Origin: a phage
DNA length: 52,949 bases
Sequence record: PX651718.1
Direction: 5' to 3' (one strand)
Positions 6,266 through 52,002 of the stretch are shown one piece after another (position 1 is the stretch's first letter; the number at the start of each line of letters is the position of its first letter). The notes below the pieces were generated by a model, which saw only the letters and a program-made list of their open reading frames with translations, made no database searches and was not told the origin of the DNA. The position numbers and the translations under genes are program-made.

Positions 6266-6510
6266 TGCGTGTTTTAGCTCTGTACGACCGACACGAACAA
6301 AAGATTCACCAAGCTGCTGGCGATGTGCCAGCTGCACAACTGGCGCTGTCTGCAATTGAGATGAACGCCTTGGCATTATTTGGAAGTGGTTTTGAGGACA
6401 ACGAAGTCTACAAAACTGCAATCGCTGCTCTGAAAGAATCGAAAGATTTCTCAGACACACAATCTATCCTGTCCGATTTGGACATTGACTCTCACATTAT
6501 TGAAATTTAA
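6265..6510 (+). CDS. hypothetical protein
   Basis: Track ORF; ATG overlaps the polymerase stop (TAATG). Confidence 0.5.
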   Translation: MRVLALYDRHEQKIHQAAGDVPAAQLALSAIEMNALALFGSGFEDNEVYKTAIAALKESKDFSDTQSILSDLDIDSHIIEI

Positions 6511-11307: not shown

Positions 11308-11493
11308 ATGCGCACAATACAATGTCCTAACTGCCATTATGAAATTGCAGAAGATGATTTCATAACGCAGCAATGTCCTATCTGTGATTCATACATGCCA
11401 CTAAACCGCCTATATTTAAAGGCCGATTCTGGTTTAGGCAGCATCATTCGCATCAATCCCGTGCAAACTCAGCCATTAGTGGATTGTGATTAA
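11308..11493 (+). CDS. small zinc-ribbon protein
   Basis: CPNCHYE ... CPICDS (two CxxC pairs); RBS CGGAG. Confidence 0.5.
   Translation: MRTIQCPNCHYEIAEDDFITQQCPICDSYMPLNRLYLKADSGLGSIIRINPVQTQPLVDCD
11475..11490 (+). promoter_or_regulatory. variant copy of the conserved promoter-like motif (ATTAGTGGATTGTGAT)
   Basis: Matches ATTAGTTGGATGTGAA with small changes; lies just upstream of the terminase start. Confidence 0.3.
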
Positions 11494-25918: not shown

Positions 25919-25923
25919 GAAAG

Positions 25924-25952
25924 TGCCGGGATTAATCTCGGCATTCTTCTTT
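25924..25952 (+). terminator. putative rho-independent terminator
   Basis: TGCCGGG-ATTAAT-CTCGGCA stem-loop followed by TTCTTCTTT. Confidence 0.5.
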
Positions 25953-25993
25953 AACATTATTTGAATATGTATTAATTTCAATAGGTGTATAAC

Positions 25994-37788: not shown

Positions 37789-37828
37789 GCTAGAATAAAA
37801 CAAGTAAATTAAATATTTATTTATTCCC

Positions 37829-37845: not shown

Positions 37846-37884
37846 AAGAGTAATATTAGGAATGCGTAAAGTTAAAACCAAATG

Positions 37885-37947: not shown

Positions 37948-38024
37948 CAAAATTTGTTCGAATGGAAGACCGACTATTAAATAATTTTTTTTTTATAATT
38001 TTTTTTTTAATTTAAATATTGCTA

Positions 38025-38041
38025 CAGAATTAATGAGACTA
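38025..38041 (+). promoter_or_regulatory. imperfect copy of the AATATTG palindrome (AATATTGCTACAGAATT) in an A/T-tract region
   Basis: Flanked by long poly-T/poly-A tracts (37975-38000, 38081-38100). Confidence 0.3.
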
Positions 38042-38268
38042 GAATTCGTAACAAAGCTACGAGACTCAAATTGCGGCAATATTATAATTTTTTATTTTTT
38101 GGGCCAGCGGGGAGGGGAAGCCCAACGTCCTATCGGACTTAAATACGGTCCCTACTCCAACTTTTTCCTACAGCCTATCGGCTTAATGATAACACCAAGT
38201 TAGGCGCTTCGCTTATGAGTCAAGGTCAAAGTCTTCGTGCTGTTGTAACAGTGGCACAGGTTTGTGAT

Positions 38269-38284
38269 ATTAGTTGGTTGTGAA
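38269..38284 (+). promoter_or_regulatory. conserved promoter-like motif, variant ATTAGTTGGTTGTGAA
   Basis: Member of the ATTAGTTGGATGTGAA family; 67 nt upstream of the RNA polymerase start. Confidence 0.4.
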
Positions 38285-38350
38285 TTGTGTAATGGCTACG
38301 CTATTATAATCCGTTTCAGTTAAATCATACACAATCTTGGAGACTTACAA

Positions 38351-40291
38351 ATGACTACTATCACCACTCAAACTATCAAATCCGTTGTTCCTGCTATCAC
38401 TGCTCTGGTATACCGTGCCAAAGAGAAGCAGAACTATATGCAGCCTCAGACTTGTGCTATTGCTGCCTTAGCCATATTCAAGATGATGACGTCTTTCACA
38501 CGTGATGACGTTGTTCCTGCCATTGCGATGGTTGAGCTGGCTTCTGCTTCTATTGCTGATGCCAACCGTTACAACAACGATTTGAAAGCAATGCACTATG
38601 TTGACCCAGCTATCAACCTCATTGGTCTGGCTAAGCACTTTGGCTTCATCACCATGAACGAAGACAAGTCATTCCAACAAACTGATACATGGGTTGAACT
38701 GGTTACAACCAAAGACACCGCAGTGCCATTCACCGAGCGTGTTACATCTGAATCTCGTCGCAAGCCTTTCGTTAAAGGTGGCAAAGTTAAGCCATCCAAA
38801 ACTCTGAAAGCTGCAATCGAATTCCTGCAAGATACTGAGTACCATGTGGAGACTGAGATGGTTCGCATCATTCAGTCCATGCTTGAGCAACGTACTTATG
38901 GTGGCTTGCAGATGCCAGAAGCAATCCAGACTGAACTCCATGTTTGGAACAATGCTGTAGCAATGATGAATCAAGACACTCTGTACTCTGACTACTTTGC
39001 TGATAACCGTGGTCGTTTGTATCACGTAGCATGTGCTGGTCCTAACCCACAATCCTCTGACTTTGCTCGTTGCTTGTATTCTCACAATGTTGAGAACATC
39101 GTTAAGAAGTTTAACGAAGATGGTTCTACTACCATTGCATACAACATGTTCATGGCAGAGCTGGAAGATATTTCCGGTGGTGAATGGTGCAGTGCTAAGC
39201 GTTTAACTTATGTTGCACAGAATCCTGCTGGTTCTTTGGCCCGTATGCTGAACATGCCTAAAGCTGAACGTCCTTCTAAGCCATTCACTTATGTTCGTCT
39301 GGCTCTGGATTGGTTCAAGTTTGAGACTACAGGTGAGTGTGATTCTCGTGTAGGCTTTGGCTTAGATGCTAAATGCTCTGGTACTCAATATCTGGCATTC
39401 ATTGCAGGTAACATGGAAATGGCTCGTGCAACAGGTCTGGTTGATTCTGAGACTAAAGCATCTGACCCATACCAGTTATCTCTTCGTGAACTGTTGAAAT
39501 TACTCGACCGTTCTTCAATGAAACCTTCTGTTGAAATCATGGAAGAGTTCTTGAACCCTAAAGCTGGTCGTAAGTTTATCAAAACTCCATACATGGCTAT
39601 TCAATACGGTGGTGGTAAAGCTGCTTTAACTGGTTCATCTGACTTTATCTCCTACATGACAGAAGCTCTCCAGATTCCTATGGAGAAAGTTGAGGCATTT
39701 GCTGAACTGTGTGTAGAAGCAATCCATAACGCATTGGGTGCTAAGATTAACATGTTCATTGAGAAAGCTGCTGATGCTGCATACAACCGTTGTGTTGAAC
39801 TTGGTAAAGAGTACATCACATATCGTCACACTGATGGTCAGGTTGTAATGAAGCCTTGCTTCCCATCTCGTGAAATCTGTGAGGCATTCAGCATTCGTGT
39901 TGATTCTCAAACTCGTGTTATCTTTGGCCAGATTCAGGAGAATAAGCCTTGGACCATTCGTGAATCCAATCCAACTAAAGAAGAATTCAAGCGTACTTTC
40001 GTTGTTAACTACATTCAAGGTATTGACGCACTTGTTGCTCGTACTGTTGCAGTTAAAGCTAAAGAAGCTGGTCTTCGTGGTTTTACTTCAATCCATGATT
40101 GTTTCCGTTGCTGTTTGGCAGATGCTCCACGTATGATGGAAGTTATTCGTGCAGCATATGTTGAAATCTTTGTAACCAACAATCAATTCGAGAATCTGTC
40201 TAAGCAACTCGGTGGCATTCAGATGTATCATGAGAACATCGTAACCGAAGAGCTTCTGATGAGCGAACACGCTTACTACTTCTGTCAATAA
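38351..40291 (+). CDS. single-subunit DNA-dependent RNA polymerase (T7-like, compact 646 aa)
   Basis: Motif A-like LDAKCSGTQY (compare T7 DGSCSGIQH); motif B RKFIKTPYMAIQYGG; motif C SIHDCF; RBS GGAG. Confidence 0.85.
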   Translation: MTTITTQTIKSVVPAITALVYRAKEKQNYMQPQTCAIAALAIFKMMTSFTRDDVVPAIAMVELASASIADANRYNNDLKAMHYVDPAINLIGLAKHFGFITMNEDKSFQQTDTWVELVTTKDTAVPFTERVTSESRRKPFVKGGKVKPSKTLKAAIEFLQDTEYHVETEMVRIIQSMLEQRTYGGLQMPEAIQTELHVWNNAVAMMNQDTLYSDYFADNRGRLYHVACAGPNPQSSDFARCLYSHNVENIVKKFNEDGSTTIAYNMFMAELEDISGGEWCSAKRLTYVAQNPAGSLARMLNMPKAERPSKPFTYVRLALDWFKFETTGECDSRVGFGLDAKCSGTQYLAFIAGNMEMARATGLVDSETKASDPYQLSLRELLKLLDRSSMKPSVEIMEEFLNPKAGRKFIKTPYMAIQYGGGKAALTGSSDFISYMTEALQIPMEKVEAFAELCVEAIHNALGAKINMFIEKAADAAYNRCVELGKEYITYRHTDGQVVMKPCFPSREICEAFSIRVDSQTRVIFGQIQENKPWTIRESNPTKEEFKRTFVVNYIQGIDALVARTVAVKAKEAGLRGFTSIHDCFRCCLADAPRMMEVIRAAYVEIFVTNNQFENLSKQLGGIQMYHENIVTEELLMSEHAYYFCQ

Positions 40292-40299
40292 GAGAAACA

Positions 40300-40340
40300 G
40301 GGCTGTCATCGAAAGGTGATGGCCCTTTCTTTATTCTTTA
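40300..40340 (+). terminator. rho-independent terminator after the RNA polymerase gene
   Basis: GGGC ... CATC-GAAAGGT-GATG ... GCCC stem-loop followed by TTTCTTTATTCTTTA. Confidence 0.55.
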
Positions 40341-40373
40341 TTAATTAAATCCTTTAATTCCCAATATTCAAGC

Positions 40374-40405
40374 AATATTGCTGCATGTAATATTGTTTCA
40401 ATATT
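40374..40405 (+). promoter_or_regulatory. cluster of CAATATT / AATATTG half-sites
   Basis: CAATATTCAAGCAATATTGCTGCATGTAATATTGTTTCAATATTCG: four half-sites within about 45 nt. Confidence 0.35.
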
Positions 40406-40409
40406 CGAC

Positions 40410-40425
40410 ATTAGTTGGATGTGAA
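40410..40425 (+). promoter_or_regulatory. conserved promoter-like motif ATTAGTTGGATGTGAA (consensus copy)
   Basis: Exact consensus. Confidence 0.45.
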
Positions 40426-41074
40426 GTAAAAGAATACGGAGAAATATTACTCACTTCGTTCGTGAGTTACCGCATGTCATGTTGAATCATTCTAGAAACA
40501 TTTAGCATGTCAGCTTTGAGTTACAGCGTTGTAATGATGTGGCAATCATTGAACTCCCTGGGTTGGCCACCTACAGTTCCAGCAACCATGACTTAGAGTA
40601 GGGATATCTATCCGAAACTTGTACTTCACCTATAGCATGTTCAATTGCGACAATATTGCTCCATCTCCTATTATAAAGGCCCACCCACAAGCCGGGAGAT
40701 AACTTTGGTAATATTGGAACTTTTGGACATGCTTCTTTCTTTCTTTCTACAAGAAATCGAAAGAAGAGAAGAGTCGGAGCAAAGCCTCTCGTTTACACGA
40801 AGAAGCCGCCCGATTTTGAGCAACAAATATTGTGACAATTGCGTCGCAGTATGGCATGTAAATATTGCTACAAATTGGCATGTTGGAATGTGGCAGAATT
40901 GTTAGAGGACTAATCACCTCGAAGATACAATCGTCTACCAATCTGGCATGTTAATTTTGTAACAGTATTTGTGCCAATTTCGCATGTAATAGCTGTATCA
41001 GTATTGACCCAATATTCTTGCAACCCGCATGAATACTGGCTTCCAGCCAAGCGAAGGCTTTATCATCGCATGTA

Positions 41075-41091
41075 AATATTGTGACAATATT
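41075..41091 (+). promoter_or_regulatory. perfect 17-bp palindrome AATATTG-TGA-CAATATT preceded by GCATGTA
   Basis: Exact inverted repeat; GCATGT(A/T)AAT...TTG..ACAA units recur at 40853, 40945, 40981 and 41217. Confidence 0.4.
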
Positions 41092-41128
41092 GGGATAAAA
41101 CCCTTTATTTAATTAGTTTTATTATGCT

Positions 41129-41153
41129 GTACATGGTCGGTTTTCCGTACCTG
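41129..41153 (+). repeat. third copy of the GTACATGGTCGG...GTACCTG direct repeat
   Basis: GTACATGGTCGG is identical to 37885-37896. Confidence 0.5.
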
Positions 41154-41285
41154 CTTGCTCCAATCTTAATGTGCCAAATACGTTAAGTATGGGAGTAAAC
41201 CTGTAATTAATGGTGCATGTTTAATTGTGACAAAATTCGTCTATTTGGCAGATGAGTTAGTTGCAATTAAGCATGTTCATTTATC

Positions 41286-41301
41286 ATTAGTTGCATGTGA
41301 A
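41286..41301 (+). promoter_or_regulatory. conserved promoter-like motif ATTAGTTGCATGTGAA
   Basis: 15 of 16 match to consensus. Confidence 0.4.
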
Positions 41302-41399
41302 TAAGACCAAATCTCTGTAAATTCTGCTGAAATTGTGTGACAGATTTTAGAGAGATTATGTCTCCAAGCTAATCATTGTAGTTTTTCGACACTTTGTGT

Positions 41400-41440
41400 G
41401 TCACATATATAGCCTGTGAAAAACGTGTGGTATATTGCTG
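41400..41440 (+). promoter_or_regulatory. possible host sigma70-type promoter with extended -10 (TGGTATATT)
   Basis: TGnTATATT at 41428-41436 about 150 nt upstream of the first early ORF; weak -35. Confidence 0.25.
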
Positions 41441-41591
41441 GATTGCAACGCGCCCACCAGACTAGGAAGTCACTGATGGCGGCACACACAGGAATACTAT
41501 ATAACTCCCTACAACTTTAAGGTGGATTGAGGTAAGACAAGACCTCCACAATCGTTCTGTAGGGAGTTTTCCTTTAACTTTGGAGAATAAA

Positions 41592-41843
41592 ATGGATACC
41601 ATCAACAAACGTGCAAAATTTGCTGACCTATCAGAAGGTCAAATCTTCACTTACAACTCTATCAAATGTATTAAGGTAGAGGGTGAGTGTGGCCTATACA
41701 ACACTGTAAGATTCTATGACTCAAGCCGTGCATGTAAACTTAAAGACAGTGATGTTGTTGAAATCGAAATCGAATTAGAGCCAGATGGTTCAAATGATGA
41801 AATCATTCTGCGTAAAACTGTTGGATACACTAAAGGATTCTGA
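41592..41843 (+). CDS. hypothetical early protein
   Basis: ATG at 41592 with GGAG 6 nt upstream (track ORF starts at an upstream TTG). Confidence 0.55.
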   Translation: MDTINKRAKFADLSEGQIFTYNSIKCIKVEGECGLYNTVRFYDSSRACKLKDSDVVEIEIELEPDGSNDEIILRKTVGYTKGF

Positions 41844-41844
41844 A

Positions 41845-42087
41845 ATGAATTATGCACTGTATCAATATATCAATCGTGATGGTGTTGTTTCTCATGCTTT
41901 GGTCAATACCAAGACCAGAGCAATAATGTTGGCAGACCTAATGTCTGGTTCGTCAATTTACGAAAACAAGCTAGTGTGGAAGAATGCAGCGTATCCTGAA
42001 TACGTTTGGCAAGCAATCCAGAATGACAAACATCACAAAGTTGTGGCAACTGCCGCACATCCAGATTTCCTGAAAGTGAGAGGTTAA
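41845..42087 (+). CDS. hypothetical early protein
   Basis: ATG overlapping the previous stop (TGAAATG). Confidence 0.5.
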   Translation: MNYALYQYINRDGVVSHALVNTKTRAIMLADLMSGSSIYENKLVWKNAAYPEYVWQAIQNDKHHKVVATAAHPDFLKVRG

Positions 42088-42088
42088 C

Positions 42089-42277
42089 ATGGACTTCATC
42101 GTCTACTTTAAGTTAAATGGTGTAGAGCAAAGTTTGTACTTCAATTCTTTACTTCGTTTGCAACAGTGGGCGGAGAAGTTTGTTGGTTATGATTTTGACT
42201 ACATCAACGCATGTACACCTGACGAACATGAGGAAATCGTGTTCAGTTCTTTAAATCAAATTCTGGAGGCCAAGTGA
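42089..42277 (+). CDS. hypothetical early protein
   Basis: Track ORF with GAGAGG RBS. Confidence 0.5.
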   Translation: MDFIVYFKLNGVEQSLYFNSLLRLQQWAEKFVGYDFDYINACTPDEHEEIVFSSLNQILEAK

Positions 42278-42438
42278 AGAAGCTCAAGTACATGACTAAA
42301 ACGGTTACATACATGGCTATGTACGGTGCTTCAAAGCGTAAGGCTAAGAAATTAGCAAGAGCTGCAAATCCTCGTATGCCAGCACGTAAAGTGGCTAAAA
42401 TCGTTAACCTAGTATTTGGGAATTGGAGTGCAAAATGA
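42274..42438 (+). CDS. small basic protein (K/R-rich, 54 aa), hypothetical
   Basis: GTG at 42274 after GGAGG; below the track's 60-aa cutoff. Confidence 0.35.
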   Translation: MKKLKYMTKTVTYMAMYGASKRKAKKLARAANPRMPARKVAKIVNLVFGNWSAK

Positions 42439-42608
42439 ACGACCAGCAATTCAACACATTCATGCAGCAGATTAATCATCAAGAATTGATGGACACTCTC
42501 AAAGGCAAGAAGCCAGTCGAACGTCAATATCGTAAAATTGATAATTATATGCCAACCATTATTGCATGTGTTGGATTTCTAATTGTTCTCTACTTCCTGG
42601 TGAAATAA
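42435..42608 (+). CDS. small protein with C-terminal TM segment
   Basis: ATG at 42435 with GGAG upstream; C-terminal TIIACVGFLIVLYFLV. Confidence 0.45.
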   Translation: MNDQQFNTFMQQINHQELMDTLKGKKPVERQYRKIDNYMPTIIACVGFLIVLYFLVK

Positions 42609-42705
42609 ATGGATATTGTAAAGAAACTCGTATTCTGTATTATGATGTTCCCACTTGTGCTACTTGTTGTTGGCGCATTCATGTACTTTTAATGCCGGAG
42701 TTATT

Positions 42706-42966
42706 ATGGCTACCAGAACAGGCATGATGATTGTCCCAAGCCGTAATAACTCTTTAAGCGGCTTTACACCATATAAAATCTATGAAGTGATTTCTGGCAC
42801 TGGTGAAGCAAACCTGTCAGAAGTTGCTTTGAAGTTGGGCCGTATGGTCCACTCCGAAATCTCCTGTAACGTAGTTGATGATGAAGGCAAAATCCGTTTT
42901 GTAACAATGGATTTCTTTCGTGAATTTAACCTCAAATCTGAATTAGGAGTTCTATACCATGAATGA
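42706..42966 (+). CDS. hypothetical early protein
   Basis: ATG at 42706 with GGAG 5 nt upstream; in frame with track ORF 42655..42966. Confidence 0.5.
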   Translation: MATRTGMMIVPSRNNSLSGFTPYKIYEVISGTGEANLSEVALKLGRMVHSEISCNVVDDEGKIRFVTMDFFREFNLKSELGVLYHE

Positions 42967-43141
42967 TGATGATGTTGTCTGCCCAAGGTGTGGCAGCAAT
43001 AACGTAGACCATGTAGCACACGAAGCAGTGGGAATGTATGGTCCAGTAGTTCTGGATAGTGCATTCTGTATAGATTGTGGTTTAAACATTTATCGTGGAA
43101 AACTTATAGACAATAGTGGGAATATCCCGCCAAAAGGATAA
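42959..43141 (+). CDS. small zinc-ribbon protein
   Basis: CPRCGS ... CIDCG. Confidence 0.5.
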   Translation: MNDDDVVCPRCGSNNVDHVAHEAVGMYGPVVLDSAFCIDCGLNIYRGKLIDNSGNIPPKG

Positions 43142-43143
43142 TC

Positions 43144-43371
43144 ATGAAATTTAAATGTGTTGCTTCAACCAAAGACTATGTTCCAGTTGGCTTCATCGTT
43201 GAAGGTGAAGCTATTTCGCCTTTGGAATTTAAAGTAACAAAATCGGCTGAGAGTGTTTCTCCAGCATTTCGTAAAGGTGCTGTAGTACCTATGAATGGGA
43301 CATTCTGGACATGGCAGCGTGACCATGAAGCAGAATTTGCAGATATTTGTGAACAAGGTTTATTGCAATGA
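43144..43371 (+). CDS. small protein, paralog A (begins MKFKCVASTK)
   Basis: Track ORF with AAAGGA RBS; related to the next gene. Confidence 0.55.
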   Translation: MKFKCVASTKDYVPVGFIVEGEAISPLEFKVTKSAESVSPAFRKGAVVPMNGTFWTWQRDHEAEFADICEQGLLQ

Positions 43372-43598
43372 CAAAGTTTAAATGTGTGAAATCAACCTCC
43401 TCATCTGAACATACTCCGAAAGTTGGGGATGTGATTGAGGGAGAACTTATCCACATACAGAGAAGACACGGAACAGACACTCGAATAGTTATTTCGAATG
43501 TTGGAAACCGAATGGCTGCAAACGGAAGGCCATATTGGAACATTGGTGAAAAGGTTCCGCTAAAAGGTAGTGTCTGGTCCTGGGAAGAAGTCAAATAA
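43368..43598 (+). CDS. small protein, paralog B (begins MTKFKCVKST)
   Basis: Track ORF; ATGA overlap; same N-terminal motif and a shared W-x-W/E pattern near the C-terminus. Confidence 0.55.
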   Translation: MTKFKCVKSTSSSEHTPKVGDVIEGELIHIQRRHGTDTRIVISNVGNRMAANGRPYWNIGEKVPLKGSVWSWEEVK

Positions 43599-43628
43599 TT
43601 TCCTCAACCACTTTTGTGATGAGAGTGG

Positions 43629-43952
43629 TTGCTGAATATTATTAATCAACTTGAAGCATTTATGAAACAACGTACTCGTTTACAACGTGACCCAGCCACA
43701 GGTCGCTTGTTGCCAGCATATTTGAAAGTTGGTGACTTAGTTTACACCCGTGACTTTGCTTTTGACATTTGCCCAAGCAAAGCGTATGAAGTTCTTGCCA
43801 CCAGCTTGTCTGGTCCTAAAGTGATATTCGGTGCACTTGAGCCAATTCAGTTAACTGGAACTCAGTTTGTCATTAAAGACGAATCTGGTTGCAACCGCAT
43901 CTTCAATCTCGAAGGCGGCTTATCCAAATGGGAGAAGGTGAAGCGTGGGTAA
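43629..43952 (+). CDS. hypothetical early protein (start uncertain; ATG at 43662 possible)
   Basis: Track ORF. Confidence 0.45.
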   Translation: MLNIINQLEAFMKQRTRLQRDPATGRLLPAYLKVGDLVYTRDFAFDICPSKAYEVLATSLSGPKVIFGALEPIQLTGTQFVIKDESGCNRIFNLEGGLSKWEKVKRG

Positions 43953-44178
43953 GAATTATATCGAAATGTTTAAACGACTGCCCATTAATGGGCAGGAGTT
44001 CTTACTAAACGATGCAAGACAAGATGTGGAGCTGTCTGATAAATACAGCTTCTCGTATCAGAGGACTATTGTAAAATGGACGTTCTCTTACATATCCTAC
44101 AATCTTCCAGGAGAAACGCTTGTGATTAGTGGTTCTGGAGATTCCGTATTATCCGCTTTGGAGAAACTAAAGCAATGA
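43945..44178 (+). CDS. hypothetical early protein
   Basis: Track ORF with GTG start and AAGGTGA RBS. Confidence 0.45.
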   Translation: MGKNYIEMFKRLPINGQEFLLNDARQDVELSDKYSFSYQRTIVKWTFSYISYNLPGETLVISGSGDSVLSALEKLKQ

Positions 44179-44462
44179 ACAAGAATTCAGTCTTACGTTA
44201 TGTTGGTAAAACAAACTACAACTTTACCAACGGTAAGAAATACAAAATCGTCGCAGGTCGTGGTGACGGGGTTCCTCGCAACAACGGTACACTCGGTGCG
44301 TATATTCAATCTCCTTTGGGTTTTGTCGTTAATGACGATAACCGCAATTTATGTTATCGTACATTCTCCGATAATTGGGAACTTGTGAAAGATTCTGGTG
44401 AAGTTAGTTGGTATAAGCCTGAATCAAACATGGACCCAATTCCAATCTCAAAGGTAATGTAA
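44175..44462 (+). CDS. hypothetical early protein
   Basis: Track ORF. Confidence 0.5.
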   Translation: MNKNSVLRYVGKTNYNFTNGKKYKIVAGRGDGVPRNNGTLGAYIQSPLGFVVNDDNRNLCYRTFSDNWELVKDSGEVSWYKPESNMDPIPISKVM

Positions 44463-44704
44463 TGAAGGAAGATATTAAGGAAATATTTGCAGGATTGGTT
44501 CTTCCTATCATTGTTTGTGTTGTTGCAATTGCATTTGTGATTGTGTTGCCTACATACTTTGTTTACAAATATGAATGCAAAACCTTTGCAGAATTGCAGC
44601 AAACTGAGTTCAAATACACAATCAATGGTACGTGCTACATTGAATCACCAAGCGGTGAATGGATTACCAAAGATATGTGGTACTTTGACAAACTGACTCG
44701 TTAA
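44462..44704 (+). CDS. small membrane protein (one TM segment)
   Basis: Track ORF; hydrophobic LVLPIIVCVVAIAFVIVLPTYFVY. Confidence 0.5.
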   Translation: MKEDIKEIFAGLVLPIIVCVVAIAFVIVLPTYFVYKYECKTFAELQQTEFKYTINGTCYIESPSGEWITKDMWYFDKLTR

Positions 44705-44746
44705 ATTAACAAGGAGCATTCATTGAGTGTTCCTGATTAATCTAAC

Positions 44747-44762
44747 ATTAGTTGAATGTGAA
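44747..44762 (+). promoter_or_regulatory. conserved promoter-like motif ATTAGTTGAATGTGAA
   Basis: 15 of 16 match; about 20 nt upstream of the RBS of the next gene. Confidence 0.45.
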
Positions 44763-44783
44763 TAACAACTTTTGGAGGTATTT

Positions 44784-45305
44784 ATGTTTTACACTGGTGT
44801 GGGAAGTCGTGAAACTCCTGAGCATATTTGCGAACTGCTGACTAGAGTAGCTTCCAAACTGGCCAGACTTGGTTGGGTAGTTCGCACAGGAGGTGCTCAA
44901 GGTGCTGACGAAGCATTTCTGGCTGGCTGCAACGGAAGGACAGAGAACTTTATACCTTGGAATGGTTTTGGAAGTTATGGTGGCGTAGTACCGGACCTGA
45001 ATCGAAATTGGGAATACCTGCAAAGTGTTGAAAACGTAAACCCACTAATCCACAGGAAAGAGACAAGAAACCTTGACAAATATAGAGGATTTTGGAAACT
45101 ACAGGCACGAAATGTTAGTCAGGTGCTTGGACTTAATTTAGACACTCCATCCAAGTTTTGTATCTTATACGCTCCGACAACATCAACTGGTGTGAGTGGC
45201 GGCACCAACACTGCATATCAGGTTGCAGTTCAGTCCGGGATACCTTGTTTTAACCTGTTTGACCCTGCTATAGTGGCAAGGTTTGAGAAATTTGTATCTG
45301 AGTGA
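44784..45305 (+). CDS. Rossmann-fold DprA/SLOG-superfamily-like protein
   Basis: YTGVGSRETP ... RTGGAQGADEAF resembles the DprA/Smf-type GSR ... SG.A.G.D..A signature; ATG at 44784 with GGAGG upstream. Confidence 0.45.
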   Translation: MFYTGVGSRETPEHICELLTRVASKLARLGWVVRTGGAQGADEAFLAGCNGRTENFIPWNGFGSYGGVVPDLNRNWEYLQSVENVNPLIHRKETRNLDKYRGFWKLQARNVSQVLGLNLDTPSKFCILYAPTTSTGVSGGTNTAYQVAVQSGIPCFNLFDPAIVARFEKFVSE

Positions 45306-45342
45306 TTATCAGGGTGCATTTACGAGTGTACCCGAATAATCC

Positions 45343-45358
45343 AAATAGTTGGATTTGA
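45343..45358 (+). promoter_or_regulatory. weaker copy of the promoter-like motif (AATAGTTGGATTTGAA)
   Basis: 14 of 16 match. Confidence 0.3.
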
Positions 45359-45433
45359 AGAGGGACAAAGCTATTCCGTGGTTAGCAATGTCACTGAAAC
45401 TTAAACTGTAATTAACTTAAGAGAATCTTAATC

Positions 45434-45811
45434 ATGGCACAATATTCAGATGTAAACACTGGCATCATCGGTCCTAACGGCTTCAAGAAAGACCCAAAAC
45501 ATCCCGACATTCGTGGGCGTATTAACGTTGACGGAATCTGGTATTGGGTGTCTGGTTGGAACAAGCAAGCAAATGGTAATGAGTTTACCTCACTTGCATT
45601 AACCATCATGACCCAAGAACAGGTCGATGAAATGATGCGTAAGCGTGAAGAGAAAGCTAAAGCCAAAGCTCAACCTCAAGCTGCCGCTCAACAGCAACAG
45701 CAACGTCAGCAACCTTCTGCACAACAGCAAGCACCTGCTCAGCAACAGACGCAGAACAGTAACTACAATCCGAACGAGCCGAAAGACTTCGACGACGACA
45801 TTCCGTTCTAA
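45434..45811 (+). CDS. compact ssDNA-binding-like protein carrying the E. coli SSB C-terminal tip DFDDDIPF
   Basis: C-terminal ...PKDFDDDIPF; Q/A/P-rich linker; short N-terminal beta-rich domain with GIWYWVSGW. Confidence 0.6.
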   Translation: MAQYSDVNTGIIGPNGFKKDPKHPDIRGRINVDGIWYWVSGWNKQANGNEFTSLALTIMTQEQVDEMMRKREEKAKAKAQPQAAAQQQQQRQQPSAQQQAPAQQQTQNSNYNPNEPKDFDDDIPF

Positions 45812-45821
45812 TGGAGATGCC

Positions 45822-45850
45822 CTATGAAAATTCTATGTTTTATAGGGCTA
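45822..45850 (+). terminator. possible terminator hairpin
   Basis: CCCTAT ... ATAGGG stem with T-rich loop after the stop at 45811. Confidence 0.3.
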
Positions 45851-45920
45851 CATAATTGGGAGATTTCTCATACAAACGATTATGTAACCTTTTGGGTGTG
45901 TAAGAACTGTTCAGCAATGC

Positions 45921-46811
45921 GTGAGGAATATCGTGGGAACTAAGGCTATCAAAATTCCGGTAAATTTGGTATCGAAAGGTGATATATACCTGCACGATTG
46001 CAAAGAGTACCTAATAGAAAGGATACTCCATTTTGCCAACATTGTACAACTGCAATATAATGGAGGATATTTCAACTTGGACGCATACAAGATTGTGGAA
46101 ATTGTCGATAAGCATGAAAATGCGCCAAAGGTTACTCCAGTCAAAGCTGGGATGGTTGTAGCAGGTGAAACACTTAGCTATGGTGTAAACTTCTTCTACA
46201 TTACTCGCGTAGAAGATTATGGTTCAGATGTTCGACTGCATCACTCGAAAGGGTACTTCGACTTTGTGAAGAGTAGGGTTGTCTACGTTGTTAACCCAGG
46301 CCCAATGGCAAGCTCACCAACAATTGAGTTCCCAAACCAAATAAATCCAATATTCCTTCCTGTGGAGGAGTTCAAGAAGCAGGAAATATCCGATGAAGAA
46401 GATGTTCTCGGAAAAGATGTAGAAGTTGGCGATGTTATTTGGGTAAATGGAAATTGGGCAACTGTAACAAACGTGTACAAACATCCACATTCGCCAGCCA
46501 ATAAAGTGAATGTAGACTATGGAAACATTAAAGGTTTACAAGTACGGCTGGCATTAACTGGAACATTCTCAAGAAAGGTAAGAGCAGTAATGGAAACATT
46601 AAATATTCAAAATGCAATCGAAGCACAACGCATTCTTCTGCAAAAGCTGGAGCAAATGTTGGAGTTAACTCAGCTTCCGCCAACAGAAGATGGCAAGATT
46701 GCAGTTGGTAACTGTAATATTCGCGTGGACAAGGCATCAATCTCTAAAGCCGCGCGCGATGAAATGAAAGCTGCTGCGAGCAAATCCGCAGAGCTTATCA
46801 AGAAGCTGTAA
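45921..46811 (+). CDS. hypothetical protein (296 aa)
   Basis: Track ORF with GTG start. Confidence 0.5.
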   Translation: MRNIVGTKAIKIPVNLVSKGDIYLHDCKEYLIERILHFANIVQLQYNGGYFNLDAYKIVEIVDKHENAPKVTPVKAGMVVAGETLSYGVNFFYITRVEDYGSDVRLHHSKGYFDFVKSRVVYVVNPGPMASSPTIEFPNQINPIFLPVEEFKKQEISDEEDVLGKDVEVGDVIWVNGNWATVTNVYKHPHSPANKVNVDYGNIKGLQVRLALTGTFSRKVRAVMETLNIQNAIEAQRILLQKLEQMLELTQLPPTEDGKIAVGNCNIRVDKASISKAARDEMKAAASKSAELIKKL

Positions 46812-46863
46812 TTAACAGAGGTCATTCCACTTCGAGTGGCCTCGATTAATTATTGGAGGAATT

Positions 46864-47223
46864 ATGAAACTTAAATACATCATTATTTATACTCTGGCAT
46901 TAATTGTTTTGGCGTTCTTTAGCTTTGAGTCTAAAGCGTCAACAAAGAACTTTAAATGTGGAGCATATACTCTTGTAGTTGATAACATCGGAGACAGCCA
47001 ACCTCTGATTGCGTCAATAATTCCTGAATCTGGTGTTTGGATAGAAGTCCCAAGTGATGAGCCAAATCCTGCAACAGTTTTATTTTACAACATTAAAGAT
47101 AGCAGGTTTGCTGCACTGTTTATAAATCATGAAGATAAACTTGTGCTACAGATTTTCCGTGATGGGGATTTCCTCAAAGCAAACTATCCTGTCTTATCCA
47201 CCAGCTGTACGGAGAAGAAATGA
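46864..47223 (+). CDS. secreted/periplasmic protein with N-terminal signal peptide
   Basis: MKLKYIIIYTLALIVLAFFSFESKAS; RBS GGAGG. Confidence 0.55.
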   Translation: MKLKYIIIYTLALIVLAFFSFESKASTKNFKCGAYTLVVDNIGDSQPLIASIIPESGVWIEVPSDEPNPATVLFYNIKDSRFAALFINHEDKLVLQIFRDGDFLKANYPVLSTSCTEKK

Positions 47224-47453
47224 CTTCAACAGAATTTATTATTGATGGGGTTCAATACCTGCTGGAATCCAATTGCGAGTATCGCCATTGGGCAGTAATT
47301 CACGACCGAGTTGTAAAATACTTGGAACGTGTAGGGAAGGAAACTGCTAAATCTATGTTGTTTGAGGCAACAGTTCTTGGAACAACCTCAATCAATAAAG
47401 AATTAGTGTCTTTCAAATTAACCATTCACCCTAGTGGGAATAGCTTTCAATGA
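47220..47453 (+). CDS. hypothetical protein
   Basis: Track ORF; ATGA overlap. Confidence 0.5.
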   Translation: MTSTEFIIDGVQYLLESNCEYRHWAVIHDRVVKYLERVGKETAKSMLFEATVLGTTSINKELVSFKLTIHPSGNSFQ

Positions 47454-47725
47454 TTTCAATAGACCAAGTTCCAGTTGAACTAAGTAAGGCAAAAGGTAAG
47501 CTAGACGATGCCAAATCTGACTTATCTACCTTTGATTTAAATGCTCCGGCCGATAAAGTTAGGGTTTTCATCGGCTGTATTGATGGATGGGTGCTTATTG
47601 AGCATGGAGTCCTTCGAGCATTACTTGTTGATGAAGTTGCCAAGGCTCAGAAAGCATTTGACGAGATTGATAACCTCAACACACTGTTAAACAATACTTT
47701 AAGCGATGCGCTAAAGGATAAGTAA
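47450..47725 (+). CDS. hypothetical protein
   Basis: Track ORF. Confidence 0.5.
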   Translation: MISIDQVPVELSKAKGKLDDAKSDLSTFDLNAPADKVRVFIGCIDGWVLIEHGVLRALLVDEVAKAQKAFDEIDNLNTLLNNTLSDALKDK

Positions 47726-48138
47726 TGAATGTTAAGCTCGGTCAACGTTCTTTGGACCGACTTAAGGGAGTAAATCCTTCATTAGTTGCAGTTTTCAAAC
47801 GTGCATGTGAAACAATGCCTTTTGATGTGACTGTTTTGGAAGGTTTACGCTCTTATGAACGTCAACAAGAACTGTTAAAACAGGGTGCAACCAAAGTTTC
47901 AGTTAGCCGACACATGTCAGGCAACGCTTTAGACATTGCACCATATCCAATTGACTGGAATGACCTCGAACGATTCAAAGTTTTAGCTCATCATATGTTC
48001 AAAGCTGCAAAAGAGCTTGGAATTACCATTCGTTGGGGTGGGAACTGGAGCCGTATTGATGAAAATCAGCCGTATCCACCACTTGCGCCAGGTAAGAAGA
48101 AGCTGATTGATATGCCGCACTTCGAACTTCCAGCATAA
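47725..48138 (+). CDS. peptidase M15-family peptidoglycan hydrolase
   Basis: SRHMSGNALDIAP (His...Asp zinc ligands) and C-terminal PHFELP, as in M15 phage endolysins. Confidence 0.7.
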   Translation: MNVKLGQRSLDRLKGVNPSLVAVFKRACETMPFDVTVLEGLRSYERQQELLKQGATKVSVSRHMSGNALDIAPYPIDWNDLERFKVLAHHMFKAAKELGITIRWGGNWSRIDENQPYPPLAPGKKKLIDMPHFELPA

Positions 48139-48146
48139 CTTCATCA

Positions 48147-48437
48147 ATGGAGCATCCGATGGAATATCAGGAAATACCGAAAGAGTTAGAGCGTATGCAA
48201 TCTCGCACATCTCGTGCAGAGGCAGAACTCCACCAGCATTTGTCAAACTATGTGTATGATTCTCGAAATCTCAGATACGAAATTTCGGTAGATGGTTGTT
48301 GCTATCCGGTAACATACGATGAGAAGACCGCCATCTTAGACATATTAGTGAAGGGTGGAAAAGAGCGGATTGAACAGCTCAAAATCCTTAATGCGGAACT
48401 TCAAGGTATGTGGGAGAAACTAAATGCAAAACGATAG
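48147..48437 (+). CDS. hypothetical protein
   Basis: Track ORF. Confidence 0.45.
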   Translation: MEHPMEYQEIPKELERMQSRTSRAEAELHQHLSNYVYDSRNLRYEISVDGCCYPVTYDEKTAILDILVKGGKERIEQLKILNAELQGMWEKLNAKR

Positions 48438-48972
48438 CATTGCTCAAGCAGTAGAACAGCTAAAGTCCTGGCGTAGAGATGAAACCTTATTGGTTCGTTT
48501 CTACACAGGCGAAACTAATTCTGAATTTGTAGATGCGTGGATTGATGGCCTGTCTTGGCGTCATTATGACTTCAACATGCGAGACTATTTGCATGAAGAA
48601 TACGGCATTGAATATCCAGAAGACGGTACATATGACGTAATTGAGTCAAATGAAGAAGATGTTACCGAAGTTTGCTTTGTTGACGGGCTGTTCAGCATTC
48701 GTAAATACGACAAGTTCAACGAACTGCTTGTTGATACTGATTTGGATGTAATTCTTGCAGCATTCCGTAGTGGTGATATTGATATTTTCACTGTGGATGA
48801 TTTGAACGACATGTTCATCACACGTTGCGACTCAATTACAGAATATTTGAAGCAAAGTGAGGCACTGGATATTCCAGACCGCCTTGCACCATATATTGAT
48901 TGGGATGCAATCACCAGAGATTATGGAAGTGACTACATTTTCTCTGAGGGAATATTATTCTTAAATGCGTGA
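48424..48972 (+). CDS. hypothetical acidic protein
   Basis: Track ORF. Confidence 0.5.
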   Translation: MQNDSIAQAVEQLKSWRRDETLLVRFYTGETNSEFVDAWIDGLSWRHYDFNMRDYLHEEYGIEYPEDGTYDVIESNEEDVTEVCFVDGLFSIRKYDKFNELLVDTDLDVILAAFRSGDIDIFTVDDLNDMFITRCDSITEYLKQSEALDIPDRLAPYIDWDAITRDYGSDYIFSEGILFLNA

Positions 48973-49276
48973 TTTAAATATTGCTGAACTTGAGGCTGGA
49001 TTGATTGTTCACCACCAGCCTCGAAACACTTTCTATCGTATTCTTGGGCCTACAAAGATTAAAACTCACTGCGGAAGTTGGGTGGATGGGTTTGCTTACC
49101 AAGAAGTGAAGAAGTACGGGGGACCATACTTTCTTAAGTATTGATTCTTCTACCATCTACACACGACCGAAAGAGCTATTTGACTCAGACTGGAAAACAC
49201 TATAGTTCCAGGCGGGTTTCTTCGAAGTGCCAAGCGGGTTTTGTGCTCGCATTGGCCTTCGGCTTTAGTCTGAAAC

Positions 49277-49292
49277 ATTAGTGGGATTTGAT
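49277..49292 (+). promoter_or_regulatory. promoter-like motif variant ATTAGTGGGATTTGAT preceded by TCTGAAAC
   Basis: Upstream TCTGAAAC is shared with the copies at 49417 and 51572. Confidence 0.35.
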
Positions 49293-49416
49293 TCTGACCA
49301 CTTAGGGAAGAAAGGCATTATACACTTATCGCCAAATGGGTGTCAAGCACTTTCTTCATTTATTTAATTTATTCTTATTATTCTTTTTGTTTGGAATATT
49401 GGAATAATTCTGAAAC

Positions 49417-49432
49417 ATTAGTTGGAGATGAA
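49417..49432 (+). promoter_or_regulatory. promoter-like motif ATTAGTTGGAGATGAA preceded by TCTGAAAC
   Basis: Immediately upstream of the ATG at 49433; the motif's GGAG doubles as RBS. Confidence 0.45.
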
Positions 49433-49609
49433 ATGATTAAAGTTCTGGAAAAAGATACAGTAACTTTCACACGCCAATGTCGGTTATGTGCTTCTGTTGT
49501 GTCTTATGAATTCTCGGACTTAAAGATATACACAGGGAAGAATGACCGAGGATATTTCGCATATAGATTTATCACTTGTCCTGTTTGCAAGAAAGACATT
49601 CGACATTAG
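49433..49609 (+). CDS. small zinc-ribbon protein (58 aa)
   Basis: CRLCAS ... CPVCKK; ATG at 49433, in frame with track ORF 49340..49609. Confidence 0.5.
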   Translation: MIKVLEKDTVTFTRQCRLCASVVSYEFSDLKIYTGKNDRGYFAYRFITCPVCKKDIRH

Positions 49610-49620
49610 TTGGAATTGAA
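49605..49620 (+). promoter_or_regulatory. promoter-like motif ATTAGTTGGAATTGAA
   Basis: 14 of 16 match; followed by about 640 nt without a convincing ORF. Confidence 0.4.
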
Positions 49621-50255
49621 ACAACATCAGATAAGAACTTTGTAACTAGGTAGTCCGTCTGGTACCAAGGCGTGTGAGAACGTTCGATTCGTTCTACAAA
49701 GTTCTTTTCGATGGAATGTTTCCATCATATTACATTTATCTTTTAACATAGGCCATAGGGCCGGAATACTTCTTCGCAGAAAAGCTATTCACTTGTTATA
49801 GGCGATGTATTGGGATGAATTGGAACTAAATAAGCAAGCTGTTAGGGCTGAATAATTAGAGGGTTATGCCTCATGCTTATGTTAGTCATTCGAAAATAGG
49901 TTTGTGCCACAAGCTGCTGGTGCTCTGAGGAAGTCGGACAAACAGGGCTTAGAGTGGCATAATCCGCACAAAACCGCGCCACCAGCTATGCCAAAGCGGG
50001 TGGATTGGGTGAATGTATTGGGAAGGGTTGCAAAGCCTCTGTGACACGCCTGAGCCGCAAGGCGACGACACTCATGTGATTAGCGTATCGCACCCTAACG
50101 GGAGTAACCCTTCACCAATGCAGTTATCCAGAATTGACACAAACGGTAGGCAGCGGCCCGATTTTCGGCCTTCCTGCGCTACCCTGTGGCCTGTTCATGG
50201 GCCAAAAGATGAGAAGAGAAGTCACAAACACTGAATCGAAAATTGGAGAGTTCCT
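49621..50255 (+). ncRNA. candidate structured non-coding RNA region (unclassified) downstream of a promoter-like motif
   Basis: No credible ORF on either strand; several stable hairpins including tRNA T-arm-like GAGAACG-TTCGATT-CGTTCTA with acceptor-like pairing CTTTGTA/TACAAAG (49638-49702). Confidence 0.3.
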
Positions 50256-50576
50256 ATGATTCGCAAGCATTCTGCTAAAGTTTTGACGTTGAGAAATGTA
50301 CTAATGTTCCCTTCAAGTGGGGAAGGAGAGGAAGAAACAATCCACTTCGTTCTCGTTGGTGGGCGTTGGTACTATAACGGCACCAATTCTTTCCACGTAA
50401 GTCTGTCGGAGAAAGATGGATTCTGGAAGCACACCTTTAAGGAGTTGCTTGAAAGCAGTGCCAACTACACCCTTGCCGAAGTTAAGAAATATTTCTACTA
50501 CGGCCCAAACAAGTCCATGCAAATCGCAACTCGCAATTGGACAACAAACCAACCGATTTACGGAGTTCCATTTTGA
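50256..50576 (+). CDS. hypothetical protein
   Basis: Track ORF with GGAGAG RBS. Confidence 0.55.
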   Translation: MIRKHSAKVLTLRNVLMFPSSGEGEEETIHFVLVGGRWYYNGTNSFHVSLSEKDGFWKHTFKELLESSANYTLAEVKKYFYYGPNKSMQIATRNWTTNQPIYGVPF

Positions 50577-50863
50577 ACTTACAAGACAAATCTAAAGAAG
50601 AGTTGATTGAGATTATCCAGAAAGAGCACGAACTCGCTGGCATCACAATTAACTTTGAACTCCAGGCAATGCAAGCTGTTGCTTTGGGTCATGGTCTAAT
50701 GGCTACACTCATTCATGCCAAGAATGTGTTAGGCGTTGACAACGAAAAATACCAAATTCTGGAGAAAGCTGCGCAAGAGCGGATTTCGCAGTGCTTGGTG
50801 ACATTAGTTGATTTGGGAATCGACGCAGAAACTGCGAACAAACGTATCCTACAAGGCCACTAA
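50573..50863 (+). CDS. hypothetical protein (TTG start overlapping the previous stop)
   Basis: TTG at 50573 with GGAG 7 nt upstream; in frame with track ORF 50537..50863. Confidence 0.45.
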   Translation: MNLQDKSKEELIEIIQKEHELAGITINFELQAMQAVALGHGLMATLIHAKNVLGVDNEKYQILEKAAQERISQCLVTLVDLGIDAETANKRILQGH

Positions 50864-50865
50864 AA

Positions 50866-51540
50866 ATGTCTTATCATGATGATGACAAAGAGATTGCACT
50901 ATCAACGTGTAAGCAATGGCTCAATGATAATGATGCCGTCTATCTTGCCAAGGAAGATGTTATCATTATGTGGGTCCATTTTAATCCAGAATCGAAGCGC
51001 GGTGAGTGGCAACGCTACAAGATGAAAGAGGCTTGTCGCATAATTAAAGCCACACGCGCTGGCTTCTCCGCCATGAAATATATTAAGCCGGAGATGCTGA
51101 TGCTTGCTGCACAGGAAGAAGAACGTGCATATAAGCAGGCTGTTAAATCTCGTTCAACTGTTCCTCCAGAGTTCTTTAATTTGGAGCGCGCTGGACACTT
51201 CAACAATTTAGAAATGTTGACACTGTGCCTGTTGCAAGAATTAGTTGGAAGAGGACAAAACATTGAAGCTGTTTGTCTTGGAGAACTTATGAAAGAGTTG
51301 TTCTCGGCAAAGGGCTTTGCTGTGCCAAATCGAACTTTACGCTGGAAATTGTTGCGAGCAGTCGCGCAAGAAGCTGGTGTAGTTGTTCGTGACAGAACAA
51401 ACCGACTCACTGTAACTGGAGTTGGGCGTTTTGTAGCAATCCAGATTGAGGGTTATGACGAATCAATCATCACTGAACTCACTGTCGCTGAGACAAAGGA
51501 TTTAGTAAATAAAACACTAGAACGATTCAACAGATACTGA
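50866..51540 (+). CDS. hypothetical protein (224 aa)
   Basis: Track ORF. Confidence 0.55.
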   Translation: MSYHDDDKEIALSTCKQWLNDNDAVYLAKEDVIIMWVHFNPESKRGEWQRYKMKEACRIIKATRAGFSAMKYIKPEMLMLAAQEEERAYKQAVKSRSTVPPEFFNLERAGHFNNLEMLTLCLLQELVGRGQNIEAVCLGELMKELFSAKGFAVPNRTLRWKLLRAVAQEAGVVVRDRTNRLTVTGVGRFVAIQIEGYDESIITELTVAETKDLVNKTLERFNRY

Positions 51541-51571
51541 GTCGTTTGACGAATCAGAGCAGTTCTGAAAC

Positions 51572-51587
51572 ATTAGTTGGATGTGGA
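51572..51587 (+). promoter_or_regulatory. promoter-like motif ATTAGTTGGATGTGGA preceded by TCTGAAAC
   Basis: 15 of 16 match; about 75 nt upstream of the next ATG. Confidence 0.45.
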
Positions 51588-51663: not shown

Positions 51664-52002
51664 ATGGCTAAGATTGTAACCGTAACTCAGTACGAAGCTA
51701 ACGATGGTTCCCTGTTCCTGACCGAAGCAGAGTGTAATGCACATGACTTCAAACTGGAAAACGGTGCTAAAATTGAGAAAGCTGCCGAAGCGTACCTGAA
51801 CACCGTTGGCGCTATCGACCGTTCTCGCTCCATGCAGAAGAACACCATCGAGCAGTTCCTGGCATTCTACCTGCCGTGGGTTGAAGCTGGTGAGCCGGAA
51901 GTTGAGCGTACTAAGTTCGATACTCCGAAAGAAGCTAAAGTTGCTGACGCAGTTGTCGCAGAAGCTGCCGAAGCTGCTGTAGAAGAAGCTCCGGTATTCT
52001 AA
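51664..52002 (+). CDS. hypothetical protein with acidic Ala/Glu-rich C-terminus ending in F
   Basis: Track ORF with AAGGTATA RBS; codon usage resembles highly expressed E. coli genes; ends AEAAVEEAPVF. Confidence 0.55.
   Translation: MAKIVTVTQYEANDGSLFLTEAECNAHDFKLENGAKIEKAAEAYLNTVGAIDRSRSMQKNTIEQFLAFYLPWVEAGEPEVERTKFDTPKEAKVADAVVAEAAEAAVEEAPVF

Follow-up and report, generated by a model that had tools for sequence, protein, structure and literature searches.

The 52,949-nt stretch of phage DNA in sequence record PX651718.1 (hereafter the window, read as the + strand) carries a repeated motif with the 16-bp core ATTAGTTGGATGTGAA, which is very probably the promoter of the phage's own T7-like RNA polymerase (RNAP), as judged from its sequence setting and by analogy with T7. 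When up to three mismatches to the core were allowed, ten matches were obtained in the window, and 10/10 were located on the + strand; the expectation from 100 dinucleotide shuffles was 0.66, with a maximum of 4, and 0/100 shuffles reached 10. The match was perfect at 40410, and it differed by one base at 38269, 41286, 44747 and 51572, by two bases at 45344, 49417 and 49605, and by three bases at 49277 and 51240 (copies are named after the first base of the core). The initial annotation, made from the letters of the window, had already reported a repeated motif on the + strand; its coordinates were right except for 45343, which is corrected here to 45344, and the copy at 51240 had not been listed.

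A position-weight matrix made from the 20-mers was used to scan both strands of the window. The ten strong copies scored 20-30 bits, and weaker + strand sites were added by the matrix at 50803 (16.7 bits), 6375 (16.4 bits) and 25956 (15.1 bits), as well as at 11475 (16.9 bits), where the initial annotation had pointed out a variant, giving 14 + strand sites in the window. The - strand of the window gave no site above 9.3 bits, and when the window and the two related phages phiEcoM-GJ1 (GJ1) and SA91KD were scanned with the matrix, no - strand site above 12 bits was found. The same motif was the top family in a mismatch-tolerant de novo search of the early region.

In the aligned window copies, positions A1, T3, A4, G5, T6, G8 and G14 of the core are invariant. 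The block reaches a few bases upstream of the 16-mer, as a weak T-G-N-R-A followed by C, and ends at the 16th base; high information content is confined to about -3 to +15 of the 16-mer frame, which defines a single block of ~19-20 bp. Three copies (49277, 49417 and 51572) are preceded by TCTGAAAC, as had been observed earlier. Neither the window copies nor 31 copies from divergent relatives (polymerase identity of at most 77%) have a second conserved element in the 24 nt upstream or the 36 nt downstream; the copies from the relatives were picked with the matrix, so that independent evidence comes from their flanks only. Upstream of the invariant G, weak but real conservation reaches out to ~16-19 nt, which indicates a footprint of T7 size. 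The G at core position 14 is present in 10/10 copies of the window and in 30/31 copies of the relatives, and it is followed by R and then by A; a mild excess of purines (0.61 vs 0.52, p ~0.03) is seen in the 12 nt beyond the motif. As far as can be read from the alignment, this invariant G, followed by A/G and A, is the likely +1.

Sites in the window and their earlier annotation

The window is 88-96% identical, in a mosaic way, to the Carltongylesvirus genomes GJ1, ST32, flopper, SA91KD and PO103-1 (Cleopatravirinae, Chaseviridae), and it belongs to this genus. In the GenBank record of GJ1 (EF460875), nine features are named 'putative phage promoter 1-9' and consist of motif 20-mers (NNNCATTAGTTGGATGTGAA), e.g. 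CGACATTAGTTGGATGTGAA and AAACATTAGTTGGATGTGGA. The same sites are labelled 'similar to promoter of phiEcoM-GJ1 (Jamalludeen et al. 2008)' in the record of SA91KD (OL960574), which cites Jamalludeen et al. 2008, Appl Environ Microbiol 74:516, for the GJ1 promoters. Several window copies are base-for-base identical to the promoters annotated in GJ1 and SA91KD; from copy sequence together with flank matches, the window copies 40410, 41286, 45344, 49277, 49605, 51240, 51572 and 25956 were assigned to GJ1 promoters 1, 2, 3, 4, 5, 6, 7 and 9, respectively. The motif is an independent rediscovery of the 2008 prediction and is already present in GenBank feature tables. Compared with GJ1, the window contains two extra, cassette-bounding copies (44747 and 49417). 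A literature search with the motif string found no paper, and the ST32, PYps23T, PP101 and MLP1 papers contain no discussion of these promoters. The copies, given as 20-mers together with the neighbouring open reading frames (ORFs), are as follows.

38265..38284, + strand: motif copy TGATATTAGTTGGTTGTGAA; invariant G 69 nt upstream of the RNA polymerase start codon
40406..40425, + strand: motif copy CGACATTAGTTGGATGTGAA; perfect consensus, top score of 29.8 bits; GJ1 'putative phage promoter 1'
41282..41301, + strand: motif copy TATCATTAGTTGCATGTGAA; GJ1 promoter 2; preceded by a hairpin of -28 kcal/mol (41213-41277)
44743..44762, + strand: motif copy TAACATTAGTTGAATGTGAA; after a hairpin; left edge of the DprA-like gene cassette (gene 44772-45305)
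45340..45359, + strand: motif copy TCCAAATAGTTGGATTTGAA; upstream of the SSB gene (45434-45811); orthologue of GJ1 promoter 3; right edge of the DprA-like cassette
49273..49292, + strand: motif copy AAACATTAGTGGGATTTGAT; after a hairpin; GJ1 promoter 4
49413..49432, + strand: motif copy AAACATTAGTTGGAGATGAA; ATG directly next at 49433; left edge of the 58-aa ORF cassette
49601..49620, + strand: motif copy CGACATTAGTTGGAATTGAA; downstream flank that of GJ1 promoter 5; right edge of the small cassette
50799..50818, + strand: weak copy TGACATTAGTTGATTTGGGA; 16.7 bits; within ORF 50537-50863, 50 nt ahead of the next gene
51236..51255, + strand: motif copy AAGAATTAGTTGGAAGAGGA; within ORF 50866-51540; GJ1 promoter 6
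51568..51587, + strand: motif copy AAACATTAGTTGGATGTGGA; 29.3 bits; GJ1 promoter 7; 79 nt ahead of gene 51664-52002
25952..25971, + strand: degenerate copy TAACATTATTTGAATATGTA; 15.1 bits; orthologue of GJ1 promoter 9 (TAACATTAGTTGAATATGTA)
11471..11490, + strand: weak variant AGCCATTAGTGGATTGTGAT; 16.9 bits; overlaps the terminase gene start
6371..6390, + strand: doubtful weak copy TGGCATTATTTGGAAGTGGT; 16.4 bits; within ORF 6265-6510

The majority of copies are found between genes, with a stable hairpin or terminator 8-12 nt upstream of them. The initial annotation had placed them mostly 10-80 nt upstream of gene starts, which holds only for a part of them: the next ORF starts 69, 222, 281, 12, 77, 50, 3, 286 and 79 nt from the invariant G, a range of 3 to 286 nt, and the copies 51240 and 50803 are inside ORFs. 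The concentration of copies in the early/middle region, on the other hand, was confirmed, as most of the 12 intergenic gaps beyond 37.7 kb have a strong copy inside them or at their edge and the 13 gaps of 1-37.7 kb contain a single weak copy only. A second, AT-rich class, which had been proposed from sites at 6501 and 25958, was not retained, because 25958 is a copy of this motif, shifted by 2 nt and carrying one substitution, and 6501 is a conserved ribosome-binding region.

The 38269 copy is kept in all relatives (in GJ1 at position 569), yet it is outside the nine promoters annotated in GJ1. The perfect copy at 40406..40425 adjoins the palindrome AATATTGTTTCAATATT. The weak copy TGACATTAGTTGATTTGGGA has the same sequence in GJ1 and SA91KD and is unannotated in both. 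The degenerate copy TAACATTATTTGAATATGTA is located directly after the terminator hairpin 25917-25951, ahead of the baseplate module, and differs from GJ1 promoter 9 by one G-to-T change, at the otherwise invariant G. The variant AGCCATTAGTGGATTGTGAT is also shared unchanged with GJ1 and SA91KD, but since it falls in coding DNA its conservation is little informative. At the orthologous place the window has no counterpart of GJ1 promoter 8, since a divergent allele here represents the small gene in which it is found in GJ1.

Two insertions relative to GJ1 were each found to be bounded exactly by a pair of motif copies, namely 44743-45339, with the DprA-like recombination-mediator gene, and 49413-49600, with the 58-aa ORF. 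GJ1 has a single copy, whose left flank is that of the first and whose right flank is that of the second window copy. This arrangement points to gain and loss of cassettes by recombination between promoter repeats, and the repeated promoters double as cassette boundaries.

The phage RNA polymerase and the motif in relatives

38351..40291, + strand: single-subunit RNA polymerase gene, 646 aa; Pfam RNA_pol, E 4e-18

That the genome encodes a compact single-subunit RNAP, as stated in the initial annotation, was borne out by Pfam, profile, AlphaFold2 and Foldseek results alike. A phmmer search of the polymerase against PDB sequences gave no match, and a profile was required: with a 47-sequence profile, residues 161-621 were aligned to residues 317-851 of T7 RNAP. 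The AlphaFold2 model of the polymerase has a pLDDT (predicted local distance difference test) of 91.9, and its top Foldseek matches are T7 RNAP complexes (E ~2e-19, TM (template modelling) 0.6, 15% identity). The catalytic residues D339, K411, Y419 and H582-D583, which are equivalent to D537, K631, Y639 and H811-D812 of T7, are invariant in the 47 homologues, and a beta-hairpin region (506-537) aligns to the specificity-loop segment of T7. The N-terminal region comprises ~160 aa, about half of the 316 aa in T7 RNAP; the idea that the promoter might be shorter than that of T7 owing to this half-length region was unsupported, given that upstream conservation extends over ~16-19 nt.

Fourteen related loci were found in IMG/VR, and the following statement on conservation covers those with polymerases 67-99% identical. 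In these loci, which include Erwinia, Pectobacterium and Proteus phages, the motif occurs on the + strand only and occupies syntenic sites ~80 nt ahead of the polymerase gene, immediately behind it and ahead of the SSB gene, and the flanks of these sites diverge. In two contigs with a polymerase ~41% identical, TTGGGTTGGAAATGGA was found at five intergenic + strand sites, including just before and just after the polymerase gene. This variant has the 3' half (TTGGA-NN-TG-R-A) in common with the main motif, and its 5' half is changed (TTGGGT for ATTAGT). The segment aligning to the T7 specificity loop also differs between the groups, being SLFLGSGEQTMYFGK in the ~41% clade as opposed to SIRVDSQTRVIFGQ. 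Joint divergence of promoter and specificity loop is the pattern among T7, T3 and SP6.

Some further features were observed around the polymerase genes. In one contig of the 41% clade (L020), a second repeat, ATACAGTAnnTATACA(A/G), clusters upstream of the polymerase gene (3780-4500). Between the motif copy and the polymerase start codon of the window, a conserved block, GGCTACGC...TAATCCGTTTC, is present at 38286-38320, with equivalents in the related loci L006-L017. In PM1 and Myduc the motif copy is downstream of this block, not upstream, and so the promoter has moved relative to the block.

Upstream of the polymerase gene, the region 37780-38110 is very AT-rich, with T-runs of 10 and TGnTACAAT-like extended -10 sequences, and direct repeats GGTCGGTCA(A/G)CTGTA(C/T)CT are found at 37885 and 37921, with a third at 41129. 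In GJ1, a sigma-70 promoter is annotated at the place equivalent to 37780-38110, and this region probably forms the physical left end and contains host early promoters. Polymerase homologues 35-52% identical (P0074, P0079, P0106 and P0117) have been recorded on large contigs from the bacteria Hafnia alvei, Lelliottia, Pseudomonas brenneri and P. laurylsulfatiphila, and an integrase-family gene is located near the polymerase gene in two related phage-sized contigs (L019 and L023); these are hints of temperate or integrated relatives of chaseviruses.

When the ends of the window were joined (52909-52949 + 1-54), a 95-nt tRNA gene was restored, and the window is therefore taken as a circularly closed complete genome (~53 kb) opened in the tRNA gene. 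ARAGORN called the split gene tRNA-Leu(CAG) and gave no tRNA on the linear window; the GJ1 homologue is annotated as tRNA-Arg with a possible intron. The non-coding stretches 930-1105 and 1458-1565 contain tRNA T-arm-like sequences (GGTTCGATTCC and GGTTCGAATC), for which no tRNA was called by ARAGORN or Rfam, and may be decayed tRNA genes. Every gene lies on the + strand, in the order polymerase gene (38351-40291, conventionally gene 1), small early genes over ~13 kb, genes for replication (window 1-11 kb), genes for packaging and structure (11.5-36 kb), and then lysis genes and the ribonucleotide reductase (RNR) small subunit gene.

Structured RNA and non-coding DNA after the polymerase gene

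40299..40326, + strand: terminator-like hairpin with a T-run, directly after the polymerase gene
40423..40624, + strand: conserved structured RNA of ~200 nt, beginning at the invariant G of the consensus copy

The consensus copy is followed by a conserved structured RNA (40423-40624) with 49 predicted pairs, 19 of which show compensatory changes. In the alignment, 93.8% of cells were paired, compared with 83.9% after shuffling and ~33% with slid partners, and the covariation score was 0.355, against 0.03-0.07 for slid partners. A covariance model of the region found one copy each in Erwinia phage Y2 and in a Pantoea-phage contig (100-106 bits; both outside the training set) and gave no match in unrelated contigs. 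No Rfam family matched 40423-40624 at gathering thresholds, and permissive scans gave sub-threshold chance matches and half of the split tRNA. An IMG/VR pattern scan with GAACTCCCTG-N10-20-AGTTCC was also tried; it returned more than 120 loci, nearly all of them by chance, and only chasevirus contigs passed the covariance model. The structure, which is conserved across genera, starts 6-10 nt after the G of the consensus copy, which independently suggests that a transcript starts there, and the RNA is probably the primary transcript of the preceding promoter copy. A replication-priming RNA or a regulatory RNA are candidate functions.

The ~1.1 kb after the polymerase gene (window 40330-41320) is unannotated in all related GenBank records. 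In this region GCATG occurs 13 times on the + strand vs once on the - strand, often as GCATGT(A/T)AATATTG; the bias (9-15 on + vs 0-3 on -) is seen in every ATTAGTTGGA-type lineage (L004-L019 and L023), and the TTGGGTTGGA lineage has at most one occurrence. A palindrome, AATATTGNNNCAATATT, was found ten times in the window with up to two mismatches, vs 0.42 expected. Eight of the ten are in the non-coding regions flanking the polymerase gene (17-mers at 37829, 38015, 38067, 40363, 40389, 40953, 41000 and 41075), and one adjoins the consensus promoter copy. The palindrome looks like an operator for a dimeric regulator, or like an origin or terminus element.

These observations may be combined, tentatively and with more doubt than confidence, into a wider picture. 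The motif and the 646-aa polymerase would form a transcription system orthogonal to that of T7, whose strongest promoter, directly behind the polymerase gene, drives the ~200-nt RNA absent from Rfam; downstream of this RNA lie ~0.7 kb of non-coding DNA with GCATG repeats biased to one strand and with AATATTGNNNCAATATT palindromes. The transcript would possibly prime an origin (compare phi1.1A/B and ColE1 RNA II) or serve as a regulatory or decoy RNA, and in the sister clade the specificity would have shifted from ATTAGT to TTGGGT together with the loop.

Promoter function, rival explanations and known systems

The proposal of the initial annotation that the copies are candidate promoters for a single-subunit RNAP is supported by strand, single-block form, placement, conservation, polymerase fold and the annotation of GJ1 and SA91KD, and it is a prediction. 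From the observed motif, its strand, placement and conservation, and from the fold of the polymerase, we infer the protein that reads the sites, the exact +1 and the temporal programme. Host RNAP would start in the AT-rich left-end region (37.8-38.3 kb) and transcribe the polymerase gene, after which the phage enzyme would initiate at the ten strong copies across the first 13 kb, among them one that directly follows the polymerase gene and one 69 nt ahead of it, the 38269 copy, which implies positive autoregulation of the polymerase. The remaining genome has few degenerate copies (25956, perhaps 11475 and 6375), and late expression would probably proceed mainly by read-through of leaky hairpin terminators, together with the weak copies. 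By analogy with T7, the specificity loop would recognise the well-conserved 5' half (ATTAGTTGG), melting would take place in the variable A/T-rich NNT stretch, and the invariant G, A/G and A would be +1 to +3.

Several points weigh against recognition of the motif by the phage polymerase. The co-variation of loop and motif is not clean, since a clade with 44% polymerase identity (L023) has another loop sequence and still carries ATTAGTTGGA-like sites, and in a clade with 37% polymerase identity (L021) a de novo motif search gave no convincing motif. Two or three copies lie within ORFs (51240, 50803 and 6375), the copy at 49417 would leave an mRNA leader of just 3 nt before the ATG, and the 26-kb structural module has one degenerate copy only, so that the motif alone leaves late transcription unexplained. 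The initial annotation had likened the motif to T7/SP6 promoters, which applies to its format; the sequence has no real similarity to the T7, T3, SP6 or K11 consensus, as no site in the window was found within six mismatches of the classical 23-bp consensus of these phages and the best ungapped register gave 9/18-19 matches. The 2022 profile from the virus taxonomy committee ICTV states that chasevirus promoters 'have not yet been identified', and no start-site mapping or in vitro transcription for any chasevirus was found in the literature searched.

Three other explanations of the motif were considered. It could be a box for a phage or host DNA-binding protein that steers host RNAP to middle promoters, in a MotA-like way or by sigma appropriation, and the phage polymerase would then read another, unrecognised sequence. 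Orientation and intergenic placement would fit such a box too; the 38269 copy overlaps a weak sigma-70-like pair, TTGTGA-18-TATTAT (9/12), and the separate palindromic operator-like motif flanking the polymerase gene indicates that site-specific regulators probably act there. We nevertheless regard this explanation as unlikely, because 4/10 copies have no TAnnnT within 40 nt downstream, where the information content stays below 0.6 bits, and because 27 sigma-70-like pairs were counted in the region vs 35.8 expected from shuffles. These counts agree with the earlier remark that the motif does not resemble a sigma70 -35/-10 pair: a -10-like partner is missing and sigma-70-like pairs are not enriched. 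Neither a sigma factor, a MotA-like protein or a helix-turn-helix family nor any other transcription factor family was recognised among 30 early ORFs, and an asymmetric single block of 19-20 bp that ends in an invariant G and purines is the format of a single-subunit polymerase promoter.

The copies might also be mainly recombination boundaries or selfish short repeats, used for gain and loss of cassettes and having no transcriptional role of their own. Each of the two insertions relative to GJ1 has a motif copy exactly at either boundary; such boundaries are, however, an expected by-product of repeated promoters, and the two roles are compatible. This account leaves several facts unexplained, namely the strict strand bias, the placement of copies behind terminators and ahead of genes, the invariant G with its purines, and the conservation over large evolutionary distance at indel-free sites, and it appears very improbable. 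The smallest probability of the three was given to an RNA-level signal (for processing, stability or translation) in polycistronic transcripts. The restriction to the coding strand and the intergenic position adjoining hairpins would suit such a signal, and RNase III and RNase E sites of T7-like phages are similarly located, but it is the primary sequence that is conserved over 19 nt, without covarying structure. An ACAT/ATGT inverted repeat is present in only about half of the copies, with no compensatory change, the distance to the start codon varies from 3 to 286 nt, and the conserved structured RNA begins, rather than ends, at the motif. A promoter of the phage's own polymerase is thus the explanation that we favour.

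The motif itself is a minor discovery, having been predicted in 2008 and entered in GenBank, and the structured RNA at the strongest copy is the more novel lead. The remaining value lies in this previously undescribed RNA, in the clade-specific variant of the motif, and in the fact that the promoters have been predicted only. If validated, the sites would answer the promoter question of the Chaseviridae, which is open according to the 2022 ICTV profile, and would define the transcription programme of myoviruses used in biocontrol of E. coli, Erwinia, Pectobacterium and Yersinia. The 20-mer matrix permits consistent promoter calling across the subfamily. The compact polymerase and its promoter (e.g. 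CGACATTAGTTGGATGTGAAG), which is dissimilar in sequence to the T7, T3, SP6 and K11 promoters, could become an orthogonal expression tool.

Among known systems, the motif was compared with sigma-70 promoters, the MotA-dependent middle promoters of T4, the promoters of the N4 virion RNAP and those of the T7 group. A sigma-70 promoter (TTGACA/TATAAT-like hexamers, 16-18 bp) was rejected, since only the 38269 copy overlaps a weak 9/12 pair. The MotA-dependent middle promoters of T4 are bipartite, with a box at -30 and a sigma-70 -10 element. They resemble the present sites in that a phage-specific box lies upstream of early/middle genes, and a MotA-like arrangement was rejected because there is no -10 partner downstream of the motif. 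The likeness to the N4 virion RNAP system is that a divergent T7-like polymerase occurs in a phage other than a T7-like podovirus. The N4 promoters are DNA hairpins with a stem of 5-7 bp and a 3-nt loop; a hairpin promoter of this type was rejected here, as the fold energies were only -1.7 to -3.7 kcal/mol and ACAT/ATGT, the sole self-complementarity of the motif, is broken in about half of the copies without compensation.

The promoters of the T7 group (T7, T3, SP6 and K11; Autographiviridae) are a further parallel, and the present system departs from them in several respects. A promoter copy lies ahead of the polymerase gene itself, the virion is that of a myovirus, the late region has very few copies, and the polymerase, with 646 aa, is ~15% identical to T7 RNAP and has a shorter N-terminal region. 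The likeness consists in a contiguous, asymmetric block of ~20 bp that runs along the gene strand in some ten or more copies, often behind a hairpin. The block has a conserved upstream part for specificity and an A/T-rich part ahead of a start at G, which purines follow, and the genome encodes a polymerase of T7 fold. In T7, phi1.1A and phi1.1B lie after gene 1, at the primary origin with AT-rich DNA. The promoter copies in the non-coding stretch right after the polymerase gene of the window recall this arrangement, and by analogy an origin is a candidate role for the region.

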